From the NCBI GenBank assembly GCA_036166355.1, contig JAYZHR010000025.1:131-64130 (forward strand): 64,000 nucleotides of DNA, given 5' to 3'. Position numbers and translations under genes: made by a program. Positions within the stretch are counted from its first letter, which is position 1, and each line of letters starts with the position of its first letter. Positions 19,313 to 42,790 of the stretch are shown piece after piece. Origin of the DNA: Verrucomicrobiota bacterium. GTDB taxonomy: Bacteria; Verrucomicrobiota; Verrucomicrobiia; Limisphaerales; UBA1096. Under the pieces are notes generated by a model. The model saw only the letters and a list, made by a program, of their open reading frames with translations, did not search any database and had not been told where the DNA came from.

Positions 19313-19414
19313 TAGAGATAATTAAATCAAGATCATAGGCTGTTTCGTAGAAACTAAGAAAGAGAGTTTGTGCAAAATATGATTTGAAGCTTTTGCTCGT
19401 AGCGGACGCGCAAA

Positions 19415-20815: not shown

Positions 20816-20834
20816 GACTTCGCTCCAACAGGGT

Positions 20835-23507
20835 TTATTTTAACTGAAATAAATCACTTTTCACAATCAGAATCACTAGGTCTCTCAGGCCACTTCCTTT
20901 CTTTTGGAGATTTGAGGCTATGAGGTCGACTCGCGAACGGTCGCCAAAATTTAATGGCCTGCCAAGCGCATAAGCAGCCAATTTGTGGGTTAAAGCACGA
21001 GTAAATTGTTCCTGCCTATTATTCAGAAGGTACGCTTTCAAGCCTTGCATCCCTTTTAGCTCATATTTATTGAATAATATTCCTTTAGCATCAACTGGAT
21101 TATTGCCGATTTTATTGCGCCACCTCCCTAGTGCATCGTAGTTTTCAAATGCAATTCCCCAAGGGTCAATTTTTGCATGGCAAGACAGGCAAGCAGGGTC
21201 ATCTCTGTGACTTGCCATGCGCTGCTTGAGAGTTAGTTTCATAATTTCCGGGTCGGCTAGATCAATTTCTGGAACGGCGGGGGGAGGGGGCGGAGGAGGG
21301 TCATTAAGCAGGTTTTCCAAAAGCCATATGCCACGTTTAAGTGGGTGAGAGTCTTTACCGTCGGAATTCATTGCTAGTAGGCCTGCTTGTGTAAGAACTC
21401 CTCCGCGTCTGTCGGGAGTTCTTAGTTTCACTGCTCGTAGTTCATTACCAATGACCTCGGGCATCTTGTAATGCTCAGCAAGTCGATCATTAGCCATTAT
21501 GTAGTCAGAATGAAGAAAATCCATTATGCTATGATTGTGTTTCAGGATCTCTTCAAAAAAGGCAACCGGTTCCTTTCGCATGGATTCCAAGACGAGTGGG
21601 TCGAAGCGGCCGTTGTTTTTTGTTGTGCCGTCGGGGGTTGTTAAAAAAGCCTTGGAATCGATCTTTAAGAAATCCAAAAGCTCGAGCCCGAGCCACTGAC
21701 GAGTAAAGTGGTGTGTAAATCTTTTGACTTTAGAATCAGTCAGTAGCCGTAATGTTTGGGACTGTAGGATTTCTGGATTTCGAAGTTTTCCTGCTTTAGC
21801 AAGACTTAGTAGTTCAGTGTCAGGAGTGCTACTCCATAAAAAAAATGAAAGCCGACTAGCTAGTTCAAAATCGGTAATGCGATCTGCGCCTCTTGCCACA
21901 TTCCTTTCGCTATTTTGAACTACGTATAGAAACTTTGGTGACGACAGGACCGCAGACAAGACTTCAATAATGGCCTCTTGAAAGTCCTTGCAGCTAGGGC
22001 GTAATTTTATGAAGAGAGATAGTTTTTGATCGACTTCTTTTTTCGTTACTTGCTTTCTCCAGGCCCGACTCATGAAACTAGTAAGTATAGCGGCCGCATA
22101 TTTTTCCTCATCATGATGCAGGATTTCTTGGAAGAAAATTCGAGAGTGGGATTCGGGCGGCCATTGCTTGAATGTGGGAGCTATAATTTCAATATAGTCA
22201 ATCTTGGCAGCAACTTTTGCACTCGAATCGTTATGGAAAGAAAGGAATTCAGCCGGATTAGGCAGATCTCCTAGCTTTGTAATATGTCTGTACGCGTTAC
22301 GGGTAATTTCGCTAAGCGGGATGTCCCAATGATAGAACTCAGGTTTGTCGGGATGCGCTGTAACTGTAATATCGCGACCACCTGCCCTCACAGCTACTCG
22401 TGAATCGTTGCTTGCTTGATTCCCAAAATATAATCGCAATGTTGGAGGATGTTTTTCTTTAGCTGAATATTGTGCTGCTCGAATGCGTACTCGCATATTC
22501 CCTGAATCTGGCAAGCCGTCGCCCAAGTCGACTATATACCTTGCATTTGCGGGGATCACAATTACGTCTGGAGAGATTGTAGGGACCTCTGGGCGAGTTA
22601 GGGTTGGAGTCCAAGCATACTTGGCGCCATTATAACTCCAGCGGGGGCCGATTCCTTGGCCGGTAACTAAATCTCTGTAGTGTATGCCATTATGATCTCG
22701 AGGGAATTTTTCAGTCTGTTTTTCTATTGCTTCTTCAAGGCGAGTCTGGAACCACCAAGAATCAAAAGGAATTCCTTGCTCCTTAATCAACTCTCGTGTC
22801 CTCTCAATATTCGTTGAGTACTTAGCATTGATTCTTTTTGCAGCGGCTTTCATTGAGATTCCATAGTAAACAGTTTTGGGGCGTTCGCCACGAACGGTTG
22901 CTTGCTTTAGAGCTTTGAGTGCTATTTGCCTGTATTGCTCAAACTGTACAGCTGTCATTTGAAGCATTTCAGAACTGTTCTTGAAACCGTCTTCCGAGCT
23001 GGTTTCTGGAGGGAGATCTCTAGAAAAATCAAGCGGCACACCAAGTAAGTCCTGCAAGACATATTTGTATTCATATCGAGTCATTCTTCGAAACGATGTA
23101 TGGCCTTTTTCGATTCGACGCACTTGCGAAGCAGTTTGAATTTCTTTAGATAGCCAATCGATAATGCTTGCTTTCTCGGTGTCTGCGAGTTGCTCCTCGA
23201 CGTCTTCCGGAGGCATTTCGCCATTACTGATAACGTCAAACACTTCCAGCCACCATTTCACATCCTTCCCCTTCAATAGGTTAGGATCAAGTGTGTCTAT
23301 TCGAAATTCTCCCTTTTGTTTTAAAGGACCGTGACATCCCATGCACGTCCGCCTCAAAATTGGCTCTACTTCTGTTTGGAACTTGGCTAAGCGGGCCTTG
23401 GGCAATTTCTTAGAGGCGGCCGAGGCAAAAGCTAGGCCGTTACTTAGAAGTACAAATAAAATTGTCCAAAAAAAGAACCTCATGAGCTTCCGCACTGCTA
23501 CCACCAT
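20835..23507 (-). CDS. large secreted PSCyt / DUF1587-DUF1592-DUF1588-DUF1585-type protein with two CxxCH motifs
   Basis: Start is ambiguous (ATG 23507 or 23483); the longer track start at 23573 would overlap the upstream gene. CMGCHGPLKQKGEFRID, LNDPPPPPPPAVPEI, and DPACLSCHAKIDPWGIAFENYD. Confidence 0.8.
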   Translation of the reverse strand: MVVAVRKLMRFFFWTILFVLLSNGLAFASAASKKLPKARLAKFQTEVEPILRRTCMGCHGPLKQKGEFRIDTLDPNLLKGKDVKWWLEVFDVISNGEMPPEDVEEQLADTEKASIIDWLSKEIQTASQVRRIEKGHTSFRRMTRYEYKYVLQDLLGVPLDFSRDLPPETSSEDGFKNSSEMLQMTAVQFEQYRQIALKALKQATVRGERPKTVYYGISMKAAAKRINAKYSTNIERTRELIKEQGIPFDSWWFQTRLEEAIEKQTEKFPRDHNGIHYRDLVTGQGIGPRWSYNGAKYAWTPTLTRPEVPTISPDVIVIPANARYIVDLGDGLPDSGNMRVRIRAAQYSAKEKHPPTLRLYFGNQASNDSRVAVRAGGRDITVTAHPDKPEFYHWDIPLSEITRNAYRHITKLGDLPNPAEFLSFHNDSSAKVAAKIDYIEIIAPTFKQWPPESHSRIFFQEILHHDEEKYAAAILTSFMSRAWRKQVTKKEVDQKLSLFIKLRPSCKDFQEAIIEVLSAVLSSPKFLYVVQNSERNVARGADRITDFELASRLSFFLWSSTPDTELLSLAKAGKLRNPEILQSQTLRLLTDSKVKRFTHHFTRQWLGLELLDFLKIDSKAFLTTPDGTTKNNGRFDPLVLESMRKEPVAFFEEILKHNHSIMDFLHSDYIMANDRLAEHYKMPEVIGNELRAVKLRTPDRRGGVLTQAGLLAMNSDGKDSHPLKRGIWLLENLLNDPPPPPPPAVPEIDLADPEIMKLTLKQRMASHRDDPACLSCHAKIDPWGIAFENYDALGRWRNKIGNNPVDAKGILFNKYELKGMQGLKAYLLNNRQEQFTRALTHKLAAYALGRPLNFGDRSRVDLIASNLQKKGSGLRDLVILIVKSDLFQLK

Positions 23508-23548
23508 CCGCCACTTTCTGCCAGTGGATTTGTCAATGATTGTTGCCT

Positions 23549-24694
23549 TTACTTTAAAGGATTCTCGAACCACGCAACGTTTTTGCTTTGTTGGCCGGCA
23601 ATGAGGGTGTCCAGATCACCATCTCCATCCATGTCAACTAGACGGATATCGTAGGCTGCTTGATTGTTATGGATAATATGAGTCGTGAATTTACCTTTCC
23701 CGTCATTTTCAAACCAAGCGGCTTTTCTGCTAACATAAGCACAGGTGACGGCGTCGATATCACCATCGGCGTCGATATCACCTACTTGAAGGCAGTGAGG
23801 CGACATAAGCTCAGTGTTGATGTTATGAATTTTCCATTTGGGGTTCTCATACCAAAAAAGTCCGGTGCCATGACCTCGTGCAGCGATAAGGTCCAGTTTG
23901 CCGTCATTGTTTACATCGGCAGGCATAATATTTGTAGCGCCGGTATGCTTGCCAGGTAAGAGATGTTTTTTGAAAGGCTTGGTTGCATCCTTGCCTGCCT
24001 CCCACCACGCAAACCATTCGCCTTTGCCGGACTTATCGTGAGGTCCGCCTTTGGCAGCGAGTGTGATGTCGAGTAGCCCATCGCCATTAACATCACCCGC
24101 TCCGAGATAATGACTCAGCCCAGGAGCGTTGTTTTTGGCAAATACATGACGCGTCCAGCGACTAGTCTTAAGAGGGTTTTTGGGAGCTTCAAGCCAAACA
24201 GCGGAGTCAGGAAACTTCCCCTTTGGTTGAGCGCTATTGGCTAGAAGGTCAAGTTTGCCATCGTTGTTGACATCTGCCTTGAGAACTCCATGTATCCCAA
24301 TAATTTCGTCCTCAATAATCCGAGTTTTCCATTGAGTGCCAGTTGGATTCTTGTTCGGCTGTTCGAACCACACAATGAGTCCGGGCTGATAACGTGCACC
24401 TATAAAGTCTGCATCCCCATCATTGTCCACATCAAAGGTCTCACCATGAATGAAAGTGTGATCTTCATCGCTGCCAATTATGATTTGTTTCCAGTCCGGG
24501 GCTACGAACAACCGCGTTTTACTGCCGGCATTGCTAATGATATCGACTTTGCCATCTCCAGTGAAATCTGCGGCTACTACAACGTTGTTATGAAGTCCTT
24601 CCCAGACGATGTGACGTTTCCAGTTTCCTTTGACTGCAGCTTGAGCGGCACATGTTATGAAGGCATGAATTAAAAAAATTCTGAATATAACCAT
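23549..24694 (-). CDS. secreted FG-GAP / VCBS repeat protein
   Basis: Signal peptide. Repeated Ca-binding-type loops: DFTGDGKVDI, DVDNDGDADF, DVNNDGKLDL (x2), DVNGDGLLDI, DIDADGDIDA and DMDGDGDLD. Confidence 0.75.
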   Translation of the reverse strand: MVIFRIFLIHAFITCAAQAAVKGNWKRHIVWEGLHNNVVVAADFTGDGKVDIISNAGSKTRLFVAPDWKQIIIGSDEDHTFIHGETFDVDNDGDADFIGARYQPGLIVWFEQPNKNPTGTQWKTRIIEDEIIGIHGVLKADVNNDGKLDLLANSAQPKGKFPDSAVWLEAPKNPLKTSRWTRHVFAKNNAPGLSHYLGAGDVNGDGLLDITLAAKGGPHDKSGKGEWFAWWEAGKDATKPFKKHLLPGKHTGATNIMPADVNNDGKLDLIAARGHGTGLFWYENPKWKIHNINTELMSPHCLQVGDIDADGDIDAVTCAYVSRKAAWFENDGKGKFTTHIIHNNQAAYDIRLVDMDGDGDLDTLIAGQQSKNVAWFENPLK

Positions 24695-24939: not shown

Positions 24940-26205
24940 GTGCGCATTTTAATTTCACTATTTTTTACAGTTGTAAGTCTAAGTGCAGAAAATTGGCCAG
25001 GTTGGCGCGGCCCACATGGAGATGGCATTAGTAACGAGAAAGATGTCCCGAAATTATGGAGCGAGAAAAAAAATATTGTCTGGAAAATAGCAATCAAAGG
25101 GGAAGGGCATTCATCGCCTATAGTTTGGGGGGATAGAATTTTCCTTACTACCAGTTTAACCAAGCAAAATGAGAGGCGCTTATTGTGTTTTGATAAGGTA
25201 ACTGGGAGGCTTTTATGGGATAAATTGGTGGTTCAATCTCCGCCTGAGTCGATTCATCGTCTTAACAGTCGTGCTTCAGGCACGCCTGCTACAGATGGCA
25301 AAATGGTCTATGTTACATTTATGCGGGCAGAAGGGGCAAAAGTAGTTGCGCCTAATGTTGGATCAGAGCGGATGATCACGCCGGGTAAGATTATTGTTGC
25401 TGCCTACGATTTTAAGGGAGAGCAAAAGTGGAAAACCAACGTTGGTGATTTTATCAGTGCTCATGGGTTTAACTCTTGTCCGGTAGTCTTTGAGGATTTA
25501 GTGATAATTAATGGGGATCACGATGGTGATGCTTATATTGTGGCGCTTGATTGCAATACCGGGAAGGAAAAGTGGCGAATACTTCGTGAAAATAAAACGC
25601 GTAGTTATGTAACACCTATTATTCGTGAGATTAAGGGAAGAACACAGATGCTTCTCTCTGGAAGTTTATCAGTAGCAAGTTATGATCCTCGCACAGGAAA
25701 ACGTCATTGGGTTTTAGATGGGCCAACCGAACAGTTTGTCGCATCTATGGTTTATAATGGGAAATATGTTTTTGTTACTGGCGGCTATCCAGAACGCCAT
25801 ATTTTAGCGATTAAGCCAGATGGCACCGGCAACATTACAGACACACATATAGCATGGCGTACTACTCGAGGTGCGGCTTATGTGCCTTCTCCAGTGGTTG
25901 TAGGGCGATACTTGTTAATTGTTGCAGATAGCGGCATTGCTAGTTGCTTTGATGCGATGAGCGGCAAGCGCCACTGGCAGGAGCGATTGCCCGGAGGGCA
26001 TAGTCCATCGCCTGTTTCGGCCAATGGTTTGGTATATTTTACATCAGACAGAGGGATTACTTCAATTGTTAGACCTGGAACCACCTTTGAGGTTTTAGCA
26101 AAAAACAATTTAGGGGAGCCGGTCTCTGCCAGTCCGGCCATCAGTCAAGGACAGCTTTTTATAAGGACCCATCAGCATCTATATTGTATTGGCGAATTGA
26201 AATAG
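24940..26205 (+). CDS. secreted PQQ-like (BamB-like) beta-propeller repeat protein
   Basis: GTG start and signal peptide. ENWPGWRGPHGDGIS N-terminal motif and repeated W/G-rich blades. Paralogue of 60142-61500. Confidence 0.7.
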   Translation: MRILISLFFTVVSLSAENWPGWRGPHGDGISNEKDVPKLWSEKKNIVWKIAIKGEGHSSPIVWGDRIFLTTSLTKQNERRLLCFDKVTGRLLWDKLVVQSPPESIHRLNSRASGTPATDGKMVYVTFMRAEGAKVVAPNVGSERMITPGKIIVAAYDFKGEQKWKTNVGDFISAHGFNSCPVVFEDLVIINGDHDGDAYIVALDCNTGKEKWRILRENKTRSYVTPIIREIKGRTQMLLSGSLSVASYDPRTGKRHWVLDGPTEQFVASMVYNGKYVFVTGGYPERHILAIKPDGTGNITDTHIAWRTTRGAAYVPSPVVVGRYLLIVADSGIASCFDAMSGKRHWQERLPGGHSPSPVSANGLVYFTSDRGITSIVRPGTTFEVLAKNNLGEPVSASPAISQGQLFIRTHQHLYCIGELK

Positions 26206-26225
26206 TTTTAAGTGATAGCTGATAT

Positions 26226-26846
26226 ATGAGTCGCAAGAGACATCTATCTGATGAAGAAACACTGATATATCCGATCAGCTCCGCAATTGAGCCTATCAAT
26301 ATAAAAAATTTGTTCCCAGTTGAACAATCAATGGAGTTGGAGCTTGGGTGTGGCGATGGATCATTTACATTGGATTATGCTATTGGGAACCCATCGCGAA
26401 ATGTTGTTGCATTAGAACGTTTGCTCGGTCGTATCACTAAGCTCAATCGAAAAGCTCATCGAGCTGGATTACGTAATTTAAGATTACTTCGAGCAGAGGC
26501 GGGCTACGTTATTAAGTATCTATTACTCCCGGAATCATTTAATGCTATACATGTATATTTTCCTGATCCTTGGCCAAAAAAGAGGCATCATAAGAATAGG
26601 TTGATTACTAAAAAATTTCCGCCTCTGGTGAAGCGGTTGCTCCGTAGTAATGGCGTCGTTTATATGCGTACTGACAACATGGAATATTTTGAACAAATGT
26701 TGGATGTATTTGGCTTGGCCAAGGGATTTGACTCAGTTGAGACGCCAGAGTCTCTTAAAAAGTTTATCACGGACTTTGAAAGGGATTTTAATTCTCAGGG
26801 AATTCCAACCAAATACGCCGCTTACAGAAGAATAACAGATAATTAA
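26226..26846 (+). CDS. trmB: tRNA (guanine-N7)-methyltransferase TrmB
   Basis: LELGCGDG SAM motif and FPDPWPKKRHHKNRL, the diagnostic TrmB motif. Confidence 0.85.
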   Translation: MSRKRHLSDEETLIYPISSAIEPINIKNLFPVEQSMELELGCGDGSFTLDYAIGNPSRNVVALERLLGRITKLNRKAHRAGLRNLRLLRAEAGYVIKYLLLPESFNAIHVYFPDPWPKKRHHKNRLITKKFPPLVKRLLRSNGVVYMRTDNMEYFEQMLDVFGLAKGFDSVETPESLKKFITDFERDFNSQGIPTKYAAYRRITDN

Positions 26847-28384
26847 GGATTTTTTGGAATAACTAATTGTTGGCCTTCTCTTAGTTTAGATGAATTCAGT
26901 GGAGGGTTTGCTCGTCGAATCGATTGTATAGATGAATTATTTTTTCGAGCAATACTACTAAGAGTATCTCCTTTTTTTACTCTGTAAACAGTGCGTACAT
27001 CTGCACGGGTGAGATACGCTAGAAATTCCATTCGCATAATTGCATCAGGATTAAAGGTAGCTTGCCCGAAGCTTGGACTGCTTACTTTTACTTCCGTTTT
27101 CGCCCATTGATCTAATAAGAATGTCAATTGACTTCCATCACTAAGATAGGCAATGACACGTTCTTTAAGTGGCATATTTAGGCTGGTTTTACTTGTTGAT
27201 GGCTCGATTTGTTTTACCCGTTCAAGGGGGACTGGAAATTCGCCTTCGGAAGTTTTGACTTGAAGTTTACCATCTGAAATTCCCATGACAGTCCCTTCCA
27301 TTCGATCGTTGTTGATTAATTTTACAAGATCATTTTCGGATCCTATAGGATGAGTAGAGGGCTCTTGAAAACGACCATCCCATTCTTCAGCACGTAAATT
27401 AGCGATACGGACTGCGCCGCGTCCTTGGTGTACGATGCGAACGCCTGTTCCTTCGCCAACAAAGCCGTCTGAGTCTGTCCATTTCCTTATTACTTTGCCG
27501 TTGATTGCAACACCGATCATTTTTTCTGGTTTGCTTGCAAAGAATTCAACATGAGACTTGGATTCGTTACGAAAGCCAGGGAGGGTAGCTTGTCCAAGAT
27601 AGGTCAGTGGTTCGTTTTTTTTCACAGGCAGCAGATTTACCGAGTAGCTATTTAATTGAATACTGTAAAATCCACCGAAGTCCGGTTCGTTCTCTTTAGT
27701 TGAGAGGCTGATAGGATGAAGAGTATCAGTATATAGTGCAAATGCTAGGTGCAGAGATCCGTTCCACTCGAGGTCAAAAGAGAGTCGGGATCGATCAGGC
27801 AGATTTAAATTTCGTGCAATTGAAGCAGCCGGTTTGGCATGAAATCCACCATTATGATAGCGCCATTTACCTGACTGCCCAAGGACTTCGTTGGTGATCT
27901 TGCCATGAGTCCACCCCGAGTCACTTCCAGGCCCTTGAAAAATAGTTTTAAGGTTTTTGGCTAAAGGGGCTATTTTCCGAATGCTACGCCGGTTAACATC
28001 CACTCTCCCCGAATGCCAGGTATCGAACTGGAATTTTTTTTCTGTTATGCCCACAAGATTACCTCGAAAATGATCTCCATTGATCAATTGTACTTCACAG
28101 ATGTTGCCGGGAGGCAGTTTGACAGGGGGGGCACTATCAAGTGTGACTTCGGTAATGCTATCAATGTTGAATTGCAATAATGATTGTGAATCTGAATGTT
28201 TCCACGAAATGCCGGTGGCTTTGTCATAGGATTTGAGTTTGCCGCGTAACCAATCTCCGTTAGTGAAATGAATTGTGGAATTTTGTGGTTCGCCCAAAAC
28301 AGTTTGGCAAAGAGCTAGAATTAATCCTGCAACACTTTGCAGCATCAATTTATAAGGAAAATATTTATACGTCCTTTCAATCAT
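26843..28384 (-). CDS. secreted repeat / jelly-roll-like protein with C-terminal LysM domain (function unknown)
   Basis: Trimmed to the ATG at 28384 (8-nt overlap with the upstream stop; MIERTYKYFPYKLMLQSVAGLILALCQTVLG is a signal peptide). Four ~45-aa NGD-type repeats flank a ~190-aa core. C-terminal LysM: YRVKKGDTLSSIARKNNSSIQSIRRANP...GQQLVIP. Its stop overlaps the trmB stop (TTAA at 26843-26846). Confidence 0.6.
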   Translation of the reverse strand: MIERTYKYFPYKLMLQSVAGLILALCQTVLGEPQNSTIHFTNGDWLRGKLKSYDKATGISWKHSDSQSLLQFNIDSITEVTLDSAPPVKLPPGNICEVQLINGDHFRGNLVGITEKKFQFDTWHSGRVDVNRRSIRKIAPLAKNLKTIFQGPGSDSGWTHGKITNEVLGQSGKWRYHNGGFHAKPAASIARNLNLPDRSRLSFDLEWNGSLHLAFALYTDTLHPISLSTKENEPDFGGFYSIQLNSYSVNLLPVKKNEPLTYLGQATLPGFRNESKSHVEFFASKPEKMIGVAINGKVIRKWTDSDGFVGEGTGVRIVHQGRGAVRIANLRAEEWDGRFQEPSTHPIGSENDLVKLINNDRMEGTVMGISDGKLQVKTSEGEFPVPLERVKQIEPSTSKTSLNMPLKERVIAYLSDGSQLTFLLDQWAKTEVKVSSPSFGQATFNPDAIMRMEFLAYLTRADVRTVYRVKKGDTLSSIARKNNSSIQSIRRANPPLNSSKLREGQQLVIPKNP

Positions 28385-29771
28385 CCCATGGCCATAGTTG
28401 ATCTGCTCCGCCCCCATTAGTCTCACTAGTTTTTTGTGATGTTAATAGATTAAATTGTAGGCGGCGGATAAATTTTGAATCAAATGTTACTGGTCCAAAG
28501 TTTAGACTATTCCCCGAAAGCTGGGTCCCTTCCCATTGTTTTAGATCAAAAGATACAGCCGCCCCTCCTGCAAAATGAGCTCGTACTTCCCATGGGCGCT
28601 TGGCCTCGGCTTTAGGCTCTTGCTTTGCTAATGAAACTCGAGTAATTCGGTTTAATGGGATGTTTAGATCCGCTCCAAGCGAATTTATTACCACGTTTTG
28701 TTCGTTCATTGCTTTAATTTTCCCTGGAACCTCGTCCCGATTTTTTAGGAAAACGGTGTCTTCATCATTTGAATTTTCAGCGAATTTAACCGGGTCTGAA
28801 TGACCATCCCAAGCAGATACCCGAAGATTACTTATTCGAATGATTGGGCCGTTTAATTGAGAGAAAAAAGACATGCCGGATCCAGTTGCAGCAAAACCAT
28901 TTGCATCTCGCCACTTCCTTATAAATTTGCGGTCGATATACATTTCCATTTCGGCTTTTTCCTTGTTGATTCGGATTTCGACTTTAACACGGTTTTGAGT
29001 CTGCATTTTTGGGATTAATCCTTGGCCGAGATTGCGGACTCCGGCTCCACTTTGAACGCGTTGTAGGCTTACATAGCCTCGGCTGATATAGAACATATAG
29101 GAGTTACTACGATAATCAAATCGGTCTAGCGCTGAAGTGTATAATGGGACAATAAGACTGAATGTGCCATTCCATTGTAGATCAAATTCAATCCTTGATG
29201 ATCCGCTAAGGCCAAAATCTCGCCCTAGAACACCCACCCCCTCGGAAATGAATACTCCGTCTCGGTACTTCCAGGCTTTGGGATCACGACCCAGGCGCCA
29301 ACCATTCATACTAGTAGGCCCTTCATATAAAATACGAAAGCCAGGAGATAAAAAAGAGAGCGATTGAAGAACATCTCTTGGTGCAGATAATTGTTCATTA
29401 AACCACGTGGAGAATTTGACGTTCTTTTCGTCGAGACCAATCAGATTGCCAAGAACCTCATCCCCATTCTGAAACCGGATATTTACAGATGGTTCATTGC
29501 TGCGCTGAACGGGAAGTGCTCCTTCAAAGCGAATCCAAGCAAGGTTGTCTGGGCGAAAATCTACTGGGCGCATCAAGTCCGGGTGCGACCATCTTATTCC
29601 TTCTTGCAGGTTTACCTGCTGTAGCTCGCCATGCAACATAGATCCGTCCATGAATCTAATGAGGCTATCCCAATTGGCTGAATGGCAGATCTTTTGGCCA
29701 TAGCAAAAAAATAGCGCCATTATTATAAGAGTTCTGAATGGGCTTTTCGCCTGGCTGAGTTTATCTCTCAT
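28377..29771 (-). CDS. secreted repeat / jelly-roll-like protein, paralogue of 26843-28384 without LysM (function unknown)
   Basis: Signal peptide. Same layout as the downstream gene: IRFMDGSMLHGEL and IRFQNGDEVLGNL repeats, a core with FDLQWNGTFSL ... NLRVSAWDG, then two more repeats. Its start overlaps the upstream gene by 11 nt. Confidence 0.6.
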   Translation of the reverse strand: MRDKLSQAKSPFRTLIIMALFFCYGQKICHSANWDSLIRFMDGSMLHGELQQVNLQEGIRWSHPDLMRPVDFRPDNLAWIRFEGALPVQRSNEPSVNIRFQNGDEVLGNLIGLDEKNVKFSTWFNEQLSAPRDVLQSLSFLSPGFRILYEGPTSMNGWRLGRDPKAWKYRDGVFISEGVGVLGRDFGLSGSSRIEFDLQWNGTFSLIVPLYTSALDRFDYRSNSYMFYISRGYVSLQRVQSGAGVRNLGQGLIPKMQTQNRVKVEIRINKEKAEMEMYIDRKFIRKWRDANGFAATGSGMSFFSQLNGPIIRISNLRVSAWDGHSDPVKFAENSNDEDTVFLKNRDEVPGKIKAMNEQNVVINSLGADLNIPLNRITRVSLAKQEPKAEAKRPWEVRAHFAGGAAVSFDLKQWEGTQLSGNSLNFGPVTFDSKFIRRLQFNLLTSQKTSETNGGGADQLWPWDD

Positions 29772-30753
29772 AGATGGGAAGGAACCGGTAATTTAGAGCA
29801 ATGGAAAGCAATGATGCTGAAGTACTGAAAGTAGGTCCAAATTGCCCCCCCCAACTCCCGTCTTCGCTTTGGCTTTGTTTTAGCTTTGTTATATTTTTTC
29901 GATTCCATTTATTCCACTCCTGAGTAGACGCATGGAAAAAAGCCTGTGCTCCATAGTAAAGGTAGTATTGTCGATAGCTGGAACTTTCAGGAGCTTTTCG
30001 CAGGTAATTAAATGCTTTCTTAAATGTGGCACTTTCCTTTTCTTTAGCCAGTGCAAAGACCAATGTGGCAATCGCAGTTCGGGCTGCGTTAGGCCCTCGA
30101 TTAGAAGTGTAGCCAAATCCTCCTTCAGGGGTTTGGCAGGATTTGAAGTATCGCAAGCCAGTTTGGATGGCTGTTTCGGGGACCGCTAGCCCAGCATTGC
30201 GCGCAGCAAACAATGCCACCATTTGAGCCCCACTAACAGTAGTATCAGCATCCGTACTGTCAGGTGAATAGCGCCATCCTCCCCTAGGGTTTTTCTTCTG
30301 AGAAGTAACGATAAGACTAATGGCTTTTTCTAGAGCGGGTCCTAGTCGATCATCTTCCACTGCCCCGTAAGCTTCAGCTAAGGCAAGTGTGGCAAATCCA
30401 TGGTTGTACATGGTAGTTCCAATGTAGCCGGTGGTTTTGTTTTGTTTGCTAATAATAAAGTTAAGTCCGCGTTTTATATTGCCACTATATGGACCCTGAT
30501 TTGGATCATCCCCGTGAGCCAGCATTGACGCTACTGCTAGACCAACTACTCCTGGAGAAGTGCCGTAGGGGTTGTCCTTAAATCCTCCGCTAGATAATTG
30601 TGACTTTGAAAGAAATTGTAGTCCTTTAACATACATTCTTTCAATTTCCTTTGGGAGAGCATCACTGTTTTCTTCAAATAATTTTTGAGCCTGACTTGTG
30701 TAAGCCAAGAAAATGCATCCTAAAAATGATAGCCAAAAACCATTTCCCTTCAT
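29761..30753 (-). CDS. secreted prenyltransferase / squalene-cyclase-repeat (alpha/alpha-toroid) protein
   Basis: Signal peptide. Repeated G-G-(W/F)-x-Y type motifs (SSGGFKD, RGGWRYS, EGGFGYT, EDGSWGG) typical of terpenoid cyclase/prenyltransferase repeats. Its ATG overlaps the upstream stop (ATGA at 30750-30753). Confidence 0.7.
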   Translation of the reverse strand: MKGNGFWLSFLGCIFLAYTSQAQKLFEENSDALPKEIERMYVKGLQFLSKSQLSSGGFKDNPYGTSPGVVGLAVASMLAHGDDPNQGPYSGNIKRGLNFIISKQNKTTGYIGTTMYNHGFATLALAEAYGAVEDDRLGPALEKAISLIVTSQKKNPRGGWRYSPDSTDADTTVSGAQMVALFAARNAGLAVPETAIQTGLRYFKSCQTPEGGFGYTSNRGPNAARTAIATLVFALAKEKESATFKKAFNYLRKAPESSSYRQYYLYYGAQAFFHASTQEWNKWNRKNITKLKQSQSEDGSWGGQFGPTFSTSASLLSIALNYRFLPIYER

Positions 30754-33700
30754 GGCTGTTTTCCTTCCTCGATAGCCTCTACCGCCTTGAAGTAGCCTTC
30801 CAATGCTTCGCGAAATTCCTCCGGCAATTTACCAGCTCCTCCGCTGCCTTTGCTTATAGTGCGGTCGAGATCATCGCGGCCGACTGAGTTGCCATTCAAT
30901 CCGTTAGCTGCTTGGTTAGTGGTGCCTCCAGCTTGACTTCCTCCAGCAGTTTGTCCTTGCTGCATGCCTTGCCCCATTTGTTGTTTCATTGCCATCATTG
31001 CCATCATGAAGTCCATTTGCTGCTGCGTTTTAGATTGCCCTTCTTGGTTTTGATCGCGCTTAATTTCTTCGTTTATAAGGTTTATGACATCAGAAATATT
31101 ACGAATAGTTTCACTCTGTGAAGCTGTTGTGATTGTATCAGTTTGCGGTTTGTCGAGTAGGTTATCAGTGACTTCCATCGAGTCAAATGCATCCTGTAGC
31201 GGAGTCAGCATTGCAGGTTCAGAGTTCTCAAACTGTAGACGGTTGAGCTCTAACATCGAGTCGGCATGCATTTCTGAAAGGCGTTTGACGCCCTTATTAT
31301 ATATATCGATATCATTTTTTTGCTGTTCGATTAGCGTTGTTTGTTGTCGATGTTTAAGTTCGCTTTCACGTAATCTAAGCATGGAGAACAGTAACTTCAT
31401 GAGATTATCCTCTTTTTTTTCTCCTCCTCCTTGTCCGGCTCCTTGACTGTCCCCATCAGATTCCTGTTTGGGAGGTTCAAGTTTTTTGGCCCAACCTTCA
31501 AATTTGTCGGCCCAATCTCCTAGATTACGAATAGCGAGCATTGAGATATTAGAGTCAATTTGACTTTCAATTTCACTGAGTGATTCGCCCGTTTTCTCCG
31601 TTTCCATTTCACGGCTGACCTCTCCGTATTGGCCTTTGGCCGTCCGTTCATAAAACCGACTGATTTCTCCCTGTAGCTCCACGGCTTTTTCTTGAGTTCT
31701 GTTTTGTGACTTCGTGAATCGTTTGTTAGCGCGTGAATAACGAGGGGGCAGGTCTTTAGGAGTAAGCCCGATCGTTTCCTGAATTATATCTTTGATTTTT
31801 TTGCGGAGGGCTAGTTCCTCTTTGCTGAGTTTACGTAGTCGCTGGGCAAGAGTGAGGGCTTGAAGGTTGTCGAGGTCCTTGTTGACCTTGTCCTGTAAGT
31901 CTGCCAGTTCATCTAGAGCCTCCTCCTCTTCTTCAAGTGCTTCTTTGAGGCTTTCTTTTTTTTCCTCTACCTGCCCTTCTTGCGCGGCTTGACTGAGCTT
32001 AGACTCGGCTGCTTTCATTTGTTGATCTGCAAGATCGTTCATCGATTTAAGATTTTCAGCCCAGTCTTGTAAGGTTTGTTCATCGAACGCAGGGTTCTGC
32101 ATAGCTTCCATCAAGGCATTTGCTCCTTCCTTAACGAGATTCTTTAAGTCCTCTGCATTATCGCGTTGTTCATCTGCCGTATTTTCGATTTTTTCATTCG
32201 TTTTGCTTTTATCTAAAGTCTCATTATCCGATTTCGCCAGTTCACGGGTATCCTCAGCAATATTTTCCTCGGTCCTTGAAACCTCCTCGAGATTTTCCAG
32301 AACTTCTTCAAGCTTCTGCCGGACCATTTCAGCATGGTCTTCTATGCCGAGGATGTGCAGCTGAATCGGAGAGGTGCGAATGGGAGTGCGTCCAGGCAAA
32401 TGATCTGTAGCCCAAACCTTTAATTCTATAGTTGTATCTCGGCCAATACCCAGCACTGCTGGACTGAAATGGAAACGGGTTTCCATATCCTTTTCTTGTG
32501 GACCTTCGGTTTCAACTGTAAGGGAGGAAATTATTTTTGGGGCAGCCTCTTCTGTTTGACCAAGCACTCGCCACTCAATCCCAGCCTCTTTAATCCCATA
32601 ATCATCATTAACAGTTGCATTAAGTTCTAGCACTTCAGTTTCTAGTATAGCCATGCTACGCGATTGAGATCCAAGGTCAGGGCGAGGAGGATTATCTTCG
32701 GTGGGCTCTACGTTAAGCTGCCATGCAGCCGCTTCTGTGAGATTATGTTCGTCACACCAAGTAAATGAAAAATGAGAGGGGTCCGTTACTTTATGTAAAG
32801 GACTAGAGAAGGAATCACTGTGAACGCTCATTTGAGAATCTACATCATCAATGGCAATTTGGGCGTGTTTAAGTTTGCGAGATACTCGTCCGCGAAATGT
32901 TATTTTACTGCCACGAAGTACAGGCAAAAAACCTGCCTGAACAGTTTCATTCTGGGTCGGATAATTTAGGTAATTTGGAAGTTTCACTTCTGCAACTAGC
33001 TCTCGTATTGCTGGGCGTTGAAGTGGGCGGATTTTTATAGTTTGTTTTGAATCACCGGCCTTAACCGTAAGATTGCCATCTTCAATTTGGCCTGGAACTG
33101 TAAATTGTACCTTCCCATCGTTGATCATTGCAGCTTTAGGCTGATTATTTTGGAATTGTGCTGAGGCAATTTTTGGTTTCCAAAAAGATCGATATTCTAT
33201 CGTTCCGCTTATGTCGAATGGCTCGCCTTTTGCCACGATTTGTTGATTTGGAAATCCATCTAATTGAACTAGTGTGTGGCGTGATATATTTGCGCCGGGT
33301 TGACTCCATCGGCGAAGCGTGTTGAGTCCAGCCTCCGGGATAATTATCCACCCCGCAATAGCAAGAAGAATAAGAGAGGTGGCGATAGTTGCACGGCGAC
33401 GGGCAGGTCGAGGGCTGACTGTTTGCTTAAAGTCGAGTTTAAGAGCTTCATCAGCAACCTGCTCAATGGCTGCACGATAAAGAGCGGGAGAAAAAATGGC
33501 AGGCCGCTTTTGTTCATTTGCCAATTCGACAATTCCCAATAGTCGGTCACCTAGCCGGCGGTAACGGCGTTGAACCAAACAGGCTATTGCTCGAGTATCT
33601 CGCTTTTTGAAAATCCAGCGATATGACCACCAAATTATTGCGCTGAGAGTAATAACAATACCACTGGCCAAAAGCCCTAATCGAAGCCAATTCGGACTAT

Positions 33701-33872
33701 CCCAAAGCCGATCAGAAAAGAATAATATCAAATATGATCCGAAAAGCCCGGCAGTGGATAGGCATACTGCCATTATTGTCTCTACAAGCCAAAGCCGACG
33801 TTCCACCAAATCGAATTGCTGCTGCAAATCTTTCGGGAAATCTTCCTGCGATATTTTTTCTTTTGGCTTCAT
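30750..33872 (-). CDS. 1040-aa membrane-anchored coiled-coil protein (DUF4175-like)
   Basis: N-terminal TM helices (LWLVETIMAVCLSTAGLFGSYLILFF and LLASGIVITLSAIIWW), a third TM near residue 165, a beta-rich middle, a long E/K/Q-rich coiled-coil region, a Met/Gln-rich tract and an LPEEFREALEGYFKAVE tail. The DUF4175 assignment is from memory of that family's layout. Confidence 0.6.
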   Translation of the reverse strand: MKPKEKISQEDFPKDLQQQFDLVERRLWLVETIMAVCLSTAGLFGSYLILFFSDRLWDSPNWLRLGLLASGIVITLSAIIWWSYRWIFKKRDTRAIACLVQRRYRRLGDRLLGIVELANEQKRPAIFSPALYRAAIEQVADEALKLDFKQTVSPRPARRRATIATSLILLAIAGWIIIPEAGLNTLRRWSQPGANISRHTLVQLDGFPNQQIVAKGEPFDISGTIEYRSFWKPKIASAQFQNNQPKAAMINDGKVQFTVPGQIEDGNLTVKAGDSKQTIKIRPLQRPAIRELVAEVKLPNYLNYPTQNETVQAGFLPVLRGSKITFRGRVSRKLKHAQIAIDDVDSQMSVHSDSFSSPLHKVTDPSHFSFTWCDEHNLTEAAAWQLNVEPTEDNPPRPDLGSQSRSMAILETEVLELNATVNDDYGIKEAGIEWRVLGQTEEAAPKIISSLTVETEGPQEKDMETRFHFSPAVLGIGRDTTIELKVWATDHLPGRTPIRTSPIQLHILGIEDHAEMVRQKLEEVLENLEEVSRTEENIAEDTRELAKSDNETLDKSKTNEKIENTADEQRDNAEDLKNLVKEGANALMEAMQNPAFDEQTLQDWAENLKSMNDLADQQMKAAESKLSQAAQEGQVEEKKESLKEALEEEEEALDELADLQDKVNKDLDNLQALTLAQRLRKLSKEELALRKKIKDIIQETIGLTPKDLPPRYSRANKRFTKSQNRTQEKAVELQGEISRFYERTAKGQYGEVSREMETEKTGESLSEIESQIDSNISMLAIRNLGDWADKFEGWAKKLEPPKQESDGDSQGAGQGGGEKKEDNLMKLLFSMLRLRESELKHRQQTTLIEQQKNDIDIYNKGVKRLSEMHADSMLELNRLQFENSEPAMLTPLQDAFDSMEVTDNLLDKPQTDTITTASQSETIRNISDVINLINEEIKRDQNQEGQSKTQQQMDFMMAMMAMKQQMGQGMQQGQTAGGSQAGGTTNQAANGLNGNSVGRDDLDRTISKGSGGAGKLPEEFREALEGYFKAVEAIEEGKQP

Positions 33873-33965
33873 TCCAAGCTGACTTATGCCCCTTGAGCTG
33901 CACGGAAGTGTAGTCCCCGTTCAGATGTAGGCAAGTCGCGCTTATTTAACTTCACTAAAAATAGA

Positions 33966-34886
33966 TCATTGCTGGATCTCTTTTTTGAGCCATTTGCGCA
34001 TTTTTGTGCGGGTTACACTCGGCCGAAGAAGCCATTGATCATTGTGATTGCGAAAGCCTGTTTCGGCAAAGGTAAGCTGTTTTGCCTTGAGGGTTGATTT
34101 GAGCCAATTTTTTGTTGCTGCCAGATTGAGGTTGGAGTCAGTAATTTCGTGGCAAATAAACTGACGACGGAGGCCTAATCGCTTTAGTCTACTAAGTGCT
34201 GCTGTTCGTTCTGAGTTTGGGTAAGGCCAAGGTGCGATGCCGTCGTAGTGGCTGTAAATTATAAAAGCCCGCCACAGCTTGGCAATCTGATCATTTTGTA
34301 ATCCTATGTAATTGCAAGCGATAGCGCCGCGGGAAAAGCCGCATAGAATGACTTGATTAGGATCCCCTCCGTATTTTTTGCAAAGCCAAGGTATCGCCTT
34401 AAGGCAGTAATCAATAGTAGGTTTGGAGGTTCGGTTTTTTCTGTCTCCCCACCAAGTTAACGATATCTGGTCTCCGCTGGCATTTAGATATGGAAGACAA
34501 ACCCAAATAAAACCTTGGCCAGCTGAAATGCCATATCCCATACTACTTCCTTCGGGACGGCCGGTATTAATATCACCGTAGGAACCATTATATTTGTTCC
34601 CTCCATATTCTACTAATAACGGATACTTTTTGTCCTTTTGCCAGTCATTAGGTAAATATGTAACGTGATATACTCCGGTTTGCTCATAGCCTGGAAGCAC
34701 TTGTTTAATCCGTTTGCCGGCTTTTAAAGGGCTCGGGTCCAGTTTTGGAACTATCAGGTCTGCTTTGATATCACGAATATCTGGTGTTTCTGGTCTTACC
34801 AAAGGAAAGGAAATGAAAAAAATATAGATTATTAGTATATTTTTTCTGAATGCCTTTTTCACGAGCGCCTTAGGATGCCCTTGCAT
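33966..34886 (-). CDS. secreted alpha/beta-hydrolase (esterase/depolymerase-like)
   Basis: N-terminal hydrophobic signal. Nucleophile elbow ILCGFSRGAIA (G-x-S-x-G), preceded by a LLVEYGGN beta-strand typical of esterase folds. Confidence 0.55.
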   Translation of the reverse strand: MQGHPKALVKKAFRKNILIIYIFFISFPLVRPETPDIRDIKADLIVPKLDPSPLKAGKRIKQVLPGYEQTGVYHVTYLPNDWQKDKKYPLLVEYGGNKYNGSYGDINTGRPEGSSMGYGISAGQGFIWVCLPYLNASGDQISLTWWGDRKNRTSKPTIDYCLKAIPWLCKKYGGDPNQVILCGFSRGAIACNYIGLQNDQIAKLWRAFIIYSHYDGIAPWPYPNSERTAALSRLKRLGLRRQFICHEITDSNLNLAATKNWLKSTLKAKQLTFAETGFRNHNDQWLLRPSVTRTKMRKWLKKEIQQ

Positions 34887-35007
34887 TAATCATGATAAAA
34901 GTTGATTTTTTGCCCTAAAATACCGGTTGCAATCATATTTGGTTGTGATAGGTTCCCGCGCCCGCTTCAAGGCGAGGGGCCCGATAACCACTTAATTTAA
35001 AGATAAT

Positions 35008-35163
35008 ATGTCACAGCATCCCAGTCTCAAAACCGGAGGAGGTACCACGGCTAAGCGCACGGTTCTGAAGCGATTCGAGCGGGTAGAATTGCTTCGCAAG
35101 CGCGGGGAATTTAAAGAAGGCGGCCGTATTACAGGCCTGAAAAAAACGAAACCGGAGGAATAA
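35008..35163 (+). CDS. small basic protein (51 aa; PVC-type small basic protein family), absent from the >=60-aa ORF track
   Basis: ATG 35008 to TAA 35161-35163 encodes MSQHPSLKTGGGTTAKRTVLKRFERVELLRKRGEFKEGGRITGLKKTKPEE. It follows the pattern SLK..G...R.VLKR.ER...L...G....G....GL.K.K that I recall from proteins annotated as small basic protein in Planctomycetes/Verrucomicrobia. A terminator hairpin follows. Confidence 0.6.
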   Translation: MSQHPSLKTGGGTTAKRTVLKRFERVELLRKRGEFKEGGRITGLKKTKPEE

Positions 35164-35177
35164 TCCGCCGGTTTTTC
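35151..35177 (+). terminator. candidate intrinsic terminator of the small basic protein gene
   Basis: ACCGGAGG (35151-35158) pairs with CCGCCGGT (35165-35172) with one mismatch and a 6-nt loop containing the stop codon. Followed by TTTTT. Confidence 0.5.
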
Positions 35178-35212
35178 TTCTAGTTCTACGGCACCGCCCT
35201 CCTTTTCTAGCG

Positions 35213-35932
35213 GTGACGCTTCGTCTACAAAAGTTCCTATCAGAAGCTGGGGTCGCATCGCGCCGACACGGCGAAAAGCTTATTCTTTCAGGACAAGTTA
35301 CCGTTGATGGTAAAGTAGTTCGCTTGTTAGGCACAAAAGTTGACCCAACAAAGAGCGAGGTAGCGCTTAATGGTAAAGTAATTCAAGCCAAGGTTAAAAG
35401 GGTGTTAGCTTTAAATAAACCTCCTAGAATTCTTTGTACCCGCCGGGATAACCATAAACGACCAACGGTATTTGATCTGCTGCCGGATAATTATGGGCAT
35501 TTATTCACTATAGGCCGTCTCGACTCTGACAGCGAAGGGCTAATTTTATTAACTAACGATGGCGAATTTTGTCAGACAATGGCTCATCCACGCCATGGCA
35601 TAACTAAAACTTATCATGTTACCTTAGCTAAACGGGTTGTTTCTGGATCACTTGAACGATTGACGGCGGGATTGCGCGATGATGGGGATTTACTCAAGGC
35701 TAAGCATGCTAAACTGCTTTATGCCAATAACACCCGCAGCCAAGTAGAGCTAGTATTGGAGGAGGGAAAGAACCGAGAGATTCGGAGAATGTTCAAAGTT
35801 TTAGGGTACAGAGTTTTGAGTCTTCGGCGTATAGCTGTTGGCCCAATTAAACTAGGAGAACTTCCTTTAGGAAAATGGAGAGTTTTGACTAAGGCAGAAA
35901 TTGCTTCATGTCTCCGGGAGACGGATAAATAG
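35213..35932 (+). CDS. pseudouridine synthase, RsuA/RluB/RluE/RluF family (S4 domain + catalytic domain)
   Basis: GTG start. S4 motif LQKFLSEAGVASRRHGEKLILSGQVTVDG. Catalytic Asp motif GRLDSDSEGLILLTNDG. Confidence 0.85.
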   Translation: MTLRLQKFLSEAGVASRRHGEKLILSGQVTVDGKVVRLLGTKVDPTKSEVALNGKVIQAKVKRVLALNKPPRILCTRRDNHKRPTVFDLLPDNYGHLFTIGRLDSDSEGLILLTNDGEFCQTMAHPRHGITKTYHVTLAKRVVSGSLERLTAGLRDDGDLLKAKHAKLLYANNTRSQVELVLEEGKNREIRRMFKVLGYRVLSLRRIAVGPIKLGELPLGKWRVLTKAEIASCLRETDK

Positions 35933-42760: not shown

Positions 42761-42790
42761 TATTAGACGACCGGGAGCCATTATATTTTT

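Follow-up and report, generated by a model that had tools for sequence, protein, structure and literature searches.

The 64,000-nucleotide stretch of DNA analysed here (the window; positions 131 to 64,130 of contig JAYZHR010000025.1, assembly GCA_036166355.1) comes from a bacterium of the Limisphaerales in the Verrucomicrobiota and carries a module of four consecutive genes, G1 to G4. A model working from the letters alone (the sequence-only reading) had described four minus-strand open reading frames (ORFs) joined by overlaps of 4, 11 and 8 nucleotides (nt) and had taken them for one expression unit. All three overlaps were confirmed on the sequence, and the genes and their junctions are as follows.

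30750-33872, minus strand: G1, a 1040-amino-acid (aa) inner-membrane protein (ORF list)
29761-30753, minus strand: G2, a 330-aa secreted protein, predicted single alpha/alpha toroid with terpenoid-cyclase/prenyltransferase-like repeats (ORF list and Pfam)
28377-29771, minus strand: G3, a 464-aa secreted protein (ORF list and AlphaFold2 model)
26843-28384, minus strand: G4, a 513-aa paralogue of G3 with a C-terminal LysM domain (ORF and BLASTP; orthologous to g4 of the related locus L001)
30750-30753, minus strand: overlap of the G1 stop and G2 start, ATGA, 4 nt (sequence)
29761-29771, minus strand: overlap of the G2 stop and G3 start, 11 nt, tATGagagaTAA (ATG at 29771 within the last G2 codons, TAA ending at 29761)
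28377-28384, minus strand: overlap of the G3 stop and G4 start, ATGATTGA, 8 nt (sequence, given a G4 start at the ATG at 28384)

The longest ORF of G4 spans 26843-28426 and begins at an upstream GTG at 28426, giving 527 residues; the ATG at 28384 gives the 513-residue protein. In one public gene call (P0121, 447 aa) G3 begins at Met18, which turns the 11-nt overlap into a gap of 40 nt. The longer G3 start, at the overlapping ATG (region 29720-29771), is the one kept across distant relatives (42 of 58), and the 17 residues absent from the P0121 call are the positively charged n-region of the G3 signal peptide. Internal promoter-like and terminator-like sites across 26000-35400 occurred at the level of shuffled sequence and were uninformative.

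Conservation of gene order and junctions

A word-indexed search for the G1 family returned 230 matches, and a profile search run exhaustively over 1.84 billion representatives returned at least 815 at E<=1e-30; almost all of the best 150 profile matches were about 1000-1060 aa long. When one genome per species was scanned with G1, 244 genomes encoded a relative, and 80 loci (given L numbers here) were examined by tblastn with the four window proteins. The closest genome matches were marine Pedosphaeraceae/Limisphaerales metagenome-assembled genomes (MAGs), with a G1 identity of 80%. The sequence-only reading had named a lack of synteny in other genomes as grounds for abandoning it; instead, the order G1-G2-G3-G4 was kept at 58 of the 59 Limisphaerales/Pedosphaerales loci with at least 4.3 kb of downstream sequence, down to approximately 37% G1 identity. 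At the sole exception (L059, 39% G1 identity) opposite-strand genes lay directly after G1. Two MAGs (Arabian9_MAG_18 and MED711) each contained two G1-bearing contigs (L010/L011 and L006/L017) 70-76% identical to the window, which could reflect a mixture of strains in the bins or a true duplication.

The junctions in these relatives resembled those of the window.

G1/G2 junction in relatives: overlapping in-frame start at 61/73; -4 in 40, and -4 or -1 in 48/73
G2/G3 junction in relatives: overlapping in-frame start at 50/58; identical -11 ATG in 42
G3/G4 junction in relatives: overlapping in-frame start at 52/60; -8 in 29 and -4 in 18

The public gene calls of L001 and L002 also contain the 4- and 11-nt overlaps. 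Since the -11 ATG lies within the invariant G2 C-terminus (...NYR(F/Y)LPIYER), its conservation is partly a by-product of protein conservation, and the coupling geometry at G2/G3 is kept whether or not protein conservation drives it. Loss of the overlaps to better-supported start sites had been named as another such ground; overlapping starts instead recur at most junctions of relatives. Taken together, the conserved gene order and the recurring overlaps give good support to a single, translationally coupled expression unit, as had been proposed. The arrangement extends to distant G1 proteins: at L087 and L088 (26-28% identity) a G2 toroid follows G1 after a 4-nt overlap, and at L085 G1 and G2 are followed, after an 11-nt overlap, by a fused G3-G4.

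Architecture of the encoded proteins

The sequence-only reading had given G1 N-terminal transmembrane (TM) helices, a beta-rich middle and about 450 residues of coiled-coil-like sequence, and both hydropathy and an AlphaFold2 model of the protein (predicted local distance difference test score, pLDDT, 83; predicted template modelling score, pTM, 0.63) agree with that layout.

33624-33794, minus strand: TM hairpin of G1, aa 27-83, with the short periplasmic loop SDRLWDSPNW (hydropathy; AlphaFold2 helices 14-88)
33396-33617, minus strand: predicted cytoplasmic helical loop of G1, aa 86-159 (positive-inside rule)
33315-33395, minus strand: TM3 of G1, aa 160-186 (hydropathy 2.13; AlphaFold2 helix 155-190)
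32349-33275, minus strand: three immunoglobulin (Ig)/macroglobulin (MG)-like beta domains of G1, aa 200-508, predicted periplasmic (AlphaFold2 strands and Foldseek)
30972-32345, minus strand: long helical region of G1, aa 510-967 (about 460 aa), rich in E, L, K and Q (AlphaFold2, pLDDT mostly 85-95; composition)
30822-31016, minus strand: Met/Gln/Gly-rich low-complexity linker of G1, aa 953-1017, predicted disordered (pLDDT <50 for 967-1017)
30768-30827, minus strand: C-terminal helix of G1 with the motif P-x-E-F-R-x-A-L-E-x-Y-F, aa 1016-1035 (conservation and AlphaFold2, helix 1018-1035)

Hydropathy places the TM segments of G1 at approximately aa 27-53, 62-83 and 160-186. Between TM2 and TM3, a 77-aa loop contains 18 Lys/Arg, which argues that this loop is cytoplasmic and therefore that residues 186-1040 are periplasmic; the predicted topology is thus N-in with three TM segments and about 850 residues outside the membrane. 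Conservation within G1 peaks in this cytoplasmic loop, at the motif LGDRLLGIVEL, with G108, D109, L111 and L112 invariant in 102 sequences, and D54, R55 and W57 of the hairpin loop are invariant or nearly so. When the beta region was compared with the Protein Data Bank (PDB) using Foldseek, it matched tandem Ig arrays as well as MG domains, both those of complement C3/C4/C5 and those of alpha-2-macroglobulin from E. coli, with E values of about 1e-5 to 1e-6. Generic tandem Ig arrays score the same as MG domains, and we read the region as a generic Ig-like array. A Met/Gln-rich tract had been placed at nt 30957-31016; the tract exists and its upper bound was right, and its lower bound was 6 nt off, the tract being aa 953-974 (nt 30951-31016). 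The C-terminal tail LPEEFREALEGYFKAVE, also singled out from the sequence, was found at aa 1016-1032, and P1017, E1019, F1020, R1021 and Y1027 within it are invariant. A 1222-aa database protein (P0066) was considered as a G1 fusion and ruled out as an N-terminal over-extension.

The likeness of G1 to DUF4175-type proteins, proposed from the sequence, proved true by an indirect route. Scans of Pfam and NCBIfam gave no match of any kind for G1, and likewise for nine distant family members; the DUF4175 model PF13779 matched 3 of 48 diverse full-length members of the G1 family (best E 1.8e-8). The homology was reached only via a bridging family from the Gemmatimonadota. An ORF directly after a BatA-like gene on a Gemmatirosa plasmid matched both the G1 profile (6e-10) and PF13779 (2.7e-6), and its homologues are annotated as 'DUF4175 family protein' and carry PF13779. 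Alignment of the G1 family (alignment A4) with these Gemmatimonadota proteins (A5) by hhalign gave a probability of 99.93%, E 9e-36, over 490 columns and G1 residues 13-515, a span that takes in the TM hairpin, the cytoplasmic loop, TM3 and the Ig-like array. Collinear secondary matches fell in the helical region (86%, E 4.7e-6, hidden Markov model (HMM) columns 670-780) and, weakly, at the C-terminal motif (26%). Members of the TIGR02302 family have two to three TM helices at the N-terminus and, outside the cytoplasm, a long C-terminal region with Gln/Gly-rich low complexity, and G1 has this architecture, its low-complexity tract lying at 953-1017. These profile comparisons place G1 in the DUF4175 superfamily, as a divergent branch to which the current Pfam model is blind. 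A tblastn search of the PLSDB plasmids with G1 found no match even at E<=1, and the Gemmatirosa protein as query matched itself only.

G2 begins with a signal peptide, whose junction AQ|(K/E/Q)LF is conserved; the rest of the protein, about 300 aa, is a single alpha/alpha toroid. As had been claimed for it, the mature protein consists of prenyltransferase/squalene-cyclase repeats, matching SQHop_cyclase_C (PF13243, 4.9e-11, 42.7 bits against a gathering score of 26.1) and Prenyltrans (PF00432, 5e-7, 29.9 against 26.5). It is the best conserved of the four proteins, at 56-71% identity between clades compared with 35-45% for G1 and 32-48% for G3/G4, and mean column identity in its alignment (A6) is 72%. 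The invariant polar motifs HGDDPN, TGYIG..MYNHGF, WRYSP.S.DADTTVSG, GG.GY and the C-terminal LPIYER include many invariant acidic and His residues; among the invariant positions are H80, D82, D83, N117, H118, E127, R161, Y162, D168, D170, R185 and N186. In class II cyclases the catalytic motif is DxDD(TA), and the active site lies between two alpha/alpha-barrel domains. The segment STDADTTV (aa 166-173) had been said to resemble DxDD only in part, and this proved apt: DADTT aligns to the N-terminal 'DLDTT' hairpin element of squalene-hopene cyclase, a non-catalytic repeat element, and a G2 profile compared with all PDB sequences matched squalene-hopene cyclase (1gsz) only as seven short repeat-level stretches. 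We therefore rejected G2 as a cyclase and regard it as a cyclase-fold protein. G2 also lacked any match to the TED or A2M Pfam families and contains no CGEQ in its sequence. A role of the module in anti-phage defence was considered and rejected, as no PADLOC model matched; the sole hit was a chance-level one of HamB on G2 (E 0.0043, 13 bits).

G3 and G4 are secreted paralogues, as proposed, sharing 26% identity over 447 aa (BLASTP E 4e-61), and of the two only G4 bears a LysM domain at its C-terminus.

26855-26986, minus strand: LysM domain of G4, residues 481-524 in the 527-aa numbering (Pfam PF01476, 9.8e-14, 51.5 bits against a cut-off of 20.9)

The AlphaFold2 model of G3 (pLDDT 85, pTM 0.80) shows, after the signal peptide, small beta barrels at 36-81 and 96-140, a beta sandwich at 146-320 and further barrels at 338-380 and 395-440. 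Foldseek matches of G3 in the PDB were botulinum neurotoxin (BoNT) Hc(-N), CBM66, the carbohydrate-recognition domain (CRD) of Emp46p, the 'putative glycosyl hydrolase' 3imm and sialidase accessory domains, at E values of 5e-8 to 4e-6. The sandwich superposed on CBM66 (4b1m) with a target-normalised TM-score of 0.54-0.64 and on the Emp46p CRD (2a6w) with a TM-score of 0.60 and a root mean square deviation of 4.0. The small barrels gave recurrent weak SH3/Sm-like matches, including RimP-C in 11 of 64 family members. The G3 model and the paralogy thus suggest that G3 and G4 each consist of two SH3-like domains, a ConA-like lectin sandwich and two further SH3-like domains.

The duplication that gave rise to this pair is old, because distant genomes hold their own orthologue of each. 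The fused protein at L085 (14060-16750, 896 aa; next to a G1 of 26% identity) contains two tandem G3/4 modules (E 5e-38 and 3e-49), a Rosetta-stone fusion that argues that G3 and G4 work together. The gene after this fusion encodes apolipoprotein N-acyltransferase (Lnt). In a Limisphaerales subclade a third G3/4 paralogue of 759 aa lies between G2 and G3 (L056:14151-16430; also L049, L055, L060-L062, L068, L077 and L078); it has an insert of about 265 aa, Ala-rich and helical-looking, that separates the lectin core from the two SH3-like domains at the N-terminus.

Position behind MoxR, DUF58 and VWA genes in relatives

DUF4175-type proteins had been said normally to accompany MoxR, DUF58 and VWA genes, and in relatives of the window these genes stand directly upstream of G1. 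At L001, on a 9.9-Mb Verrucomicrobiia contig, four same-strand genes immediately precede G1-G4 and encode a MoxR protein (AAA_3), a DUF58 protein, a 670-aa BatA-N/VWA protein (PF07584, 1.3e-17) and a 730-aa TM-VWA/GATase1-like protein, p730. Of 45 further loci whose upstream sequence was long enough, 9 had the same eight-gene order, and at L064 the same upstream genes run off the contig end. Only p730 is retained before G1 at L037, L060 and L062, the C-terminus of p730 lies upstream of G1 at L088, and in the marine clade of the window the split falls between p730 and G1. Since eight-gene, p730-only and G1-G4-only loci coexist, the cluster has been split at different points in different lineages. 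Such varying break points, seen in gene order, are the pattern expected of sub-operons of one system.

We consider it probable, at roughly 0.6, that G1-G4 are the detached distal, periplasm-facing half of an extended eight-gene Bat/Cmd-type envelope operon of the Limisphaerales and Pedosphaerales. The full order would be MoxR AAA+ ATPase, DUF58, BatA-N/VWA, the TM-VWA/GATase1-like p730, G1, G2, G3 and G4, and it would have been split in the marine lineage of the window. Translational coupling on one transcript would supply the four proteins in fixed proportion. G1 would act as an inner-membrane scaffold with a cytoplasmic contact surface and a long periplasmic arm, and would assemble into a complex with G2-G4. 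Within that complex the G3/G4 pair may bind wall glycan and, in the clade of the window, also peptidoglycan via LysM, and G2 may bind or process a small, conserved ligand, for which a polyprenyl lipid or a glycan is a candidate. MoxR and DUF58, presumably encoded elsewhere in the genome, would join the VWA membrane proteins in assembling or remodelling the complex via the cytoplasmic loop of G1, and the expected role, by analogy with RL3499-RL3502 of Rhizobium leguminosarum, would lie in envelope integrity and cell shape.

The same elements can be combined into a more specific and rather unlikely proposal, in which G1-G4 are the structural output of Bat/Cmd MoxR systems. Here a periplasm-spanning scaffold would be assembled or tensioned by MoxR/DUF58 via the G1 loop, G2 would capture a polyprenyl-linked wall precursor or another isoprenoid lipid, and a G3/G4 heterodimer would dock to the sacculus. 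If this were true, the inner membrane would be physically coupled to wall synthesis or repair in Verrucomicrobia.

A number of results weigh against placing G1-G4 in an extended Bat/Cmd-type operon. With queries from a relative, tblastn at E<=1e-3 found no MoxR, DUF58, BatA or VWA homologue in the 64-kb window, in agreement with the sequence-only reading, and MoxR linkage was absent at 36 of the 45 relatives. Neither PF13779 nor TIGR02302 matched G1 at E<=0.1, and G1 stayed unmatched when the scan of family members was relaxed to E<=10. At L089 (24% G1 identity) G1 stands alone, the next gene being of the His_biosynth family and the others likewise unrelated, and the DUF4175 operons of Gemmatimonadota have no G2, G3 or G4 after the DUF4175 gene; G2-G4 are therefore lineage additions and not universal partners. 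Among relatives, LysM was found only at L003, L004, L005, L007, L008 and L017 (71-81% identical to G4), and G4 of L001 ends without it, so peptidoglycan binding by LysM is not a core feature. Physical interaction among G1-G4 is suggested only by synteny, overlaps and one fusion, and a dependence of the window's module on MoxR is a prediction. Finally, Bat phenotypes are inconsistent, with aerotolerance in Bacteroides and none in Leptospira (PMC5700661).

Two claims of the sequence-only reading need to be modified as a result. It had proposed a cell-envelope or peptidoglycan-associated complex; the envelope and periplasmic part agrees with the predicted topology of G1 and the signal peptides of G2-G4, and peptidoglycan association through LysM falls away as a core feature. 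It had also presented the four genes as a combination of no described function, while allowing that an already characterised operon type might contain them. They do not appear to be free-standing and would in part belong to such a type, as the detached distal half of a Bat/Cmd-type operon; the combination itself is undescribed. A literature search on DUF4175, MoxR/DUF58/BatA and Bat operon topics found no description of the G1-G4 combination, nor of G2-G4 homologues in Bat-type operons. The core association in the Verrucomicrobiota, as judged from gene content, appears to be a DUF4175-type protein, a toroid and one or more lectin-like paralogues, with looser analogues in the Planctomycetota.

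We weighed four other explanations. The module might be a self-contained secreted system for glycan binding or processing in polysaccharide use, with glycans bound by the lectin/CBM-like G3 and G4, G2 as an (alpha/alpha)6 glycoside-hydrolase- or epimerase-like enzyme and the MoxR link incidental. The matches of the G3/G4 core to CBM66, L-type lectin CRDs, 3imm and sialidase accessory domains fit this, as do a weak GlcNAc 2-epimerase match of G2 (E 0.032), its invariant acidic and His residues, and the richness of the window in sulfatase and PSCyt/DUF1501-type genes, which are common in polysaccharide-degrading bacteria of the Planctomycetes-Verrucomicrobia-Chlamydiae (PVC) group. We nevertheless hold it unlikely: the DUF4175-type G1 is always first and 4-nt coupled to G2 even at 26% identity, no CAZy-type catalytic family was detected in HMM scans, and the recurrent same-strand place behind MoxR-DUF58-BatA-VWA, with its varied break points, is hard to call incidental.

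If G2 were a true isoprenoid enzyme, a cyclase or prenyltransferase, the operon might modify hopanoid, squalene or polyprenyl lipids of the envelope. The Pfam matches above gathering score, a partial NCBIfam hopene_cyclase match and the very high conservation of G2, with invariant HGDD, DADTT and several His/Asp/Arg/Tyr residues, speak for such an enzyme. Against it, G2 is a single secreted toroid of about 300 aa whereas class II cyclases need two, its resemblance to squalene-hopene cyclase is confined to the seven repeat-level stretches, with DADTT at 'DLDTT' and not at DxDD, and its scores in NCBIfam reach only some tenth of the respective cut-offs; we regard this explanation as distinctly improbable.

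Very improbable in our view is a split, non-covalent analogue of alpha-2-macroglobulin or complement, in which G1 would supply MG/Ig domains and G2 a TED-like toroid to form a protease trap or damage sensor. The MG-domain matches of the G1 beta array first suggest it, G2 shares its alpha/alpha-toroid superfamily with the TED domain, and the VWA partners are reminiscent of the factor B-C3b pairing. However, generic tandem Ig arrays give equal Foldseek scores, G2 has neither a TED/A2M Pfam match nor a CGEQ thioester, and there is no bait region or receptor-binding domain.

That the four are chance neighbours or separately expressed genes, with overlaps produced by the choice of longest ORFs, draws on the Met18 start of P0121, which removes the 11-nt overlap, and on several alternative starts for G4, and is largely refuted by the gene order kept at 58/59 loci down to 37% identity, by the same overlap geometry at 48/73, 42/58 and 47/60 junctions, by the overlaps in the public calls of L001 and L002, and by internal promoter- and terminator-like sites no commoner than in shuffled sequence.

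Around the module, the nearest gene on the same strand is the following.

33966-34886, minus strand: exported alpha/beta-hydrolase-like gene, 306 aa, 93 nt before G1 (N-terminal hydrophobic segment)

HMM scans of its product gave weak esterase- or PHA-depolymerase-like matches only, and the gene is kept upstream of G1 only in the marine clade, at about 63-77% identity; it may be a clade-specific first gene, co-transcribed there and outside the core module. At the other end, the stop of the convergent trmB (26226-26846, plus strand) overlaps the G4 stop by 4 nt at 26843-26846, and a minus-strand terminator-like hairpin (26619-26636; 7 bp, 5 GC, then AAATTTTTTA) lies about 200 nt past the G4 stop, antisense within trmB. 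The module is flanked (17882-23573 and 38512-44242) by sulfatase genes and pairs of planctomycete-type cytochrome/DUF1501/DUF1552/DUF1553 genes. PSCyt/PSD, DUF1501, DUF1552 and sulfatase genes are typical of PVC bacteria, and in distant relatives these flanking genes had no conserved link to G1-G4.

Comparison with known systems

The fold of G2, built of alpha-hairpin repeats, is shared with squalene-hopene cyclase and the protein prenyltransferase beta-subunit. Compared with the solved cyclases, G2 is single-domain and secreted, is without the catalytic DxDD and is an ortholog of none.

The DUF4175 operons of Gemmatimonadota (L086, and L084 on plasmid 1 of Gemmatirosa kalamazoonensis) have the order MoxR-DUF58-BatA-DUF4175. 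The N-terminal 500 residues of their DUF4175 proteins are the part that aligns with G1 at 99.93% probability, and their C-terminal motifs resemble that of G1; they exceed G1 in length by 100-250 aa, and the aligned half is 16% identical. At L086 (416-5701) two DUF4159 genes and a GATase1-like protein precede the cluster; in Verrucomicrobiota, BatA and p730 appear to contain these domain types as fusions.

A further analogue lies on the 81-kb plasmid pPL62-3 of Planctomyces sp. SH-PL62 (L083, 551-14056), a seemingly unexpected home for a Bat-like envelope operon. Here DUF58, BatA and VWA genes are followed by a G1-like N-terminal half (E 1.8e-13), a further gene of 542 aa, a small protein of 182 aa that bears the tail motif of G1, and a large secreted protein with G3/4-type beta domains. 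In contrast to the window, several genes together make up the equivalent of G1, a toroid of the G2 type was not found, and the G3/4-like protein carries DUF1583-C and NPCBM domains, unlike G3 and G4.

Bat clusters (BatI of B. fragilis, bb0170-bb0176 of spirochaetes, bat of Leptospira) encode MoxR, DUF58 and BatA-type inner-membrane proteins with periplasmic VWA domains, and their function is uncertain (PMC5700661). MoxR ATPases are described as chaperone-like partners of VWA proteins (PMC8926400, PMC3893208). The Bat operons of B. fragilis and spirochaetes thus resemble the relatives of the window in joining MoxR, DUF58 and BatA-type VWA proteins in one cluster, and they differ in continuing with BatC/BatD/BatE-type TPR/SH3 proteins (PMC5700661) and not with DUF4175-type, toroid or lectin paralogues. 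The SH3 theme of BatC/BatD/BatE recurs in G3/G4 at the level of predicted fold.

The closest parallel in composition is RL3499-RL3502 (cmdA-D) of R. leguminosarum, which we take to encode a MoxR ATPase, a DUF58 protein, a BatA-N/DUF4159 protein and a DUF4175 protein; Vanderlinde and colleagues (2011, J Bacteriol 193:2684, as cited in PMC5700661 and PMC5118466) are said to have ascribed to them a role in envelope integrity and cell shape. Relatives of the window likewise carry MoxR-DUF58-BatA-type genes followed by a DUF4175-type gene, and G1 is homologous to DUF4175-family proteins, with the N-terminal TM helices, long extracytoplasmic region and Gln/Gly stretch of that family. Beyond this set, the operon in Verrucomicrobiota has a second VWA/GATase1-like membrane protein as well as G2, G3 and G4, three genes that are not known from any described version; in addition, G1 goes unseen by PF13779 and TIGR02302, and in the window the MoxR half is detached. 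Growth on TY medium is impaired for RL3499 and RL3500 (PMC5118466).

Of the bacterial gene clusters whose mechanism is unexplained, those of the MoxR-DUF58-BatA kind rank with the most widespread, with reported phenotypes that range from aerotolerance to envelope integrity and shape. In a large verrucomicrobial lineage the cluster extends into four more coupled genes. The first of these, G1, represents a DUF4175 branch so far without recognition by Pfam (at least 815 representative clusters at E<=1e-30; PF13779 matches 3 of 48 members), to which the DUF4175 annotation could be extended across many 'hypothetical' proteins. Together, G1, the toroid G2 and the lectin-like G3/G4 provide concrete periplasmic candidates for the target of the ATPase/VWA machinery. 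G1-G4 are not a new kind of system on their own; they are probably an undescribed extension of a known and poorly understood one.

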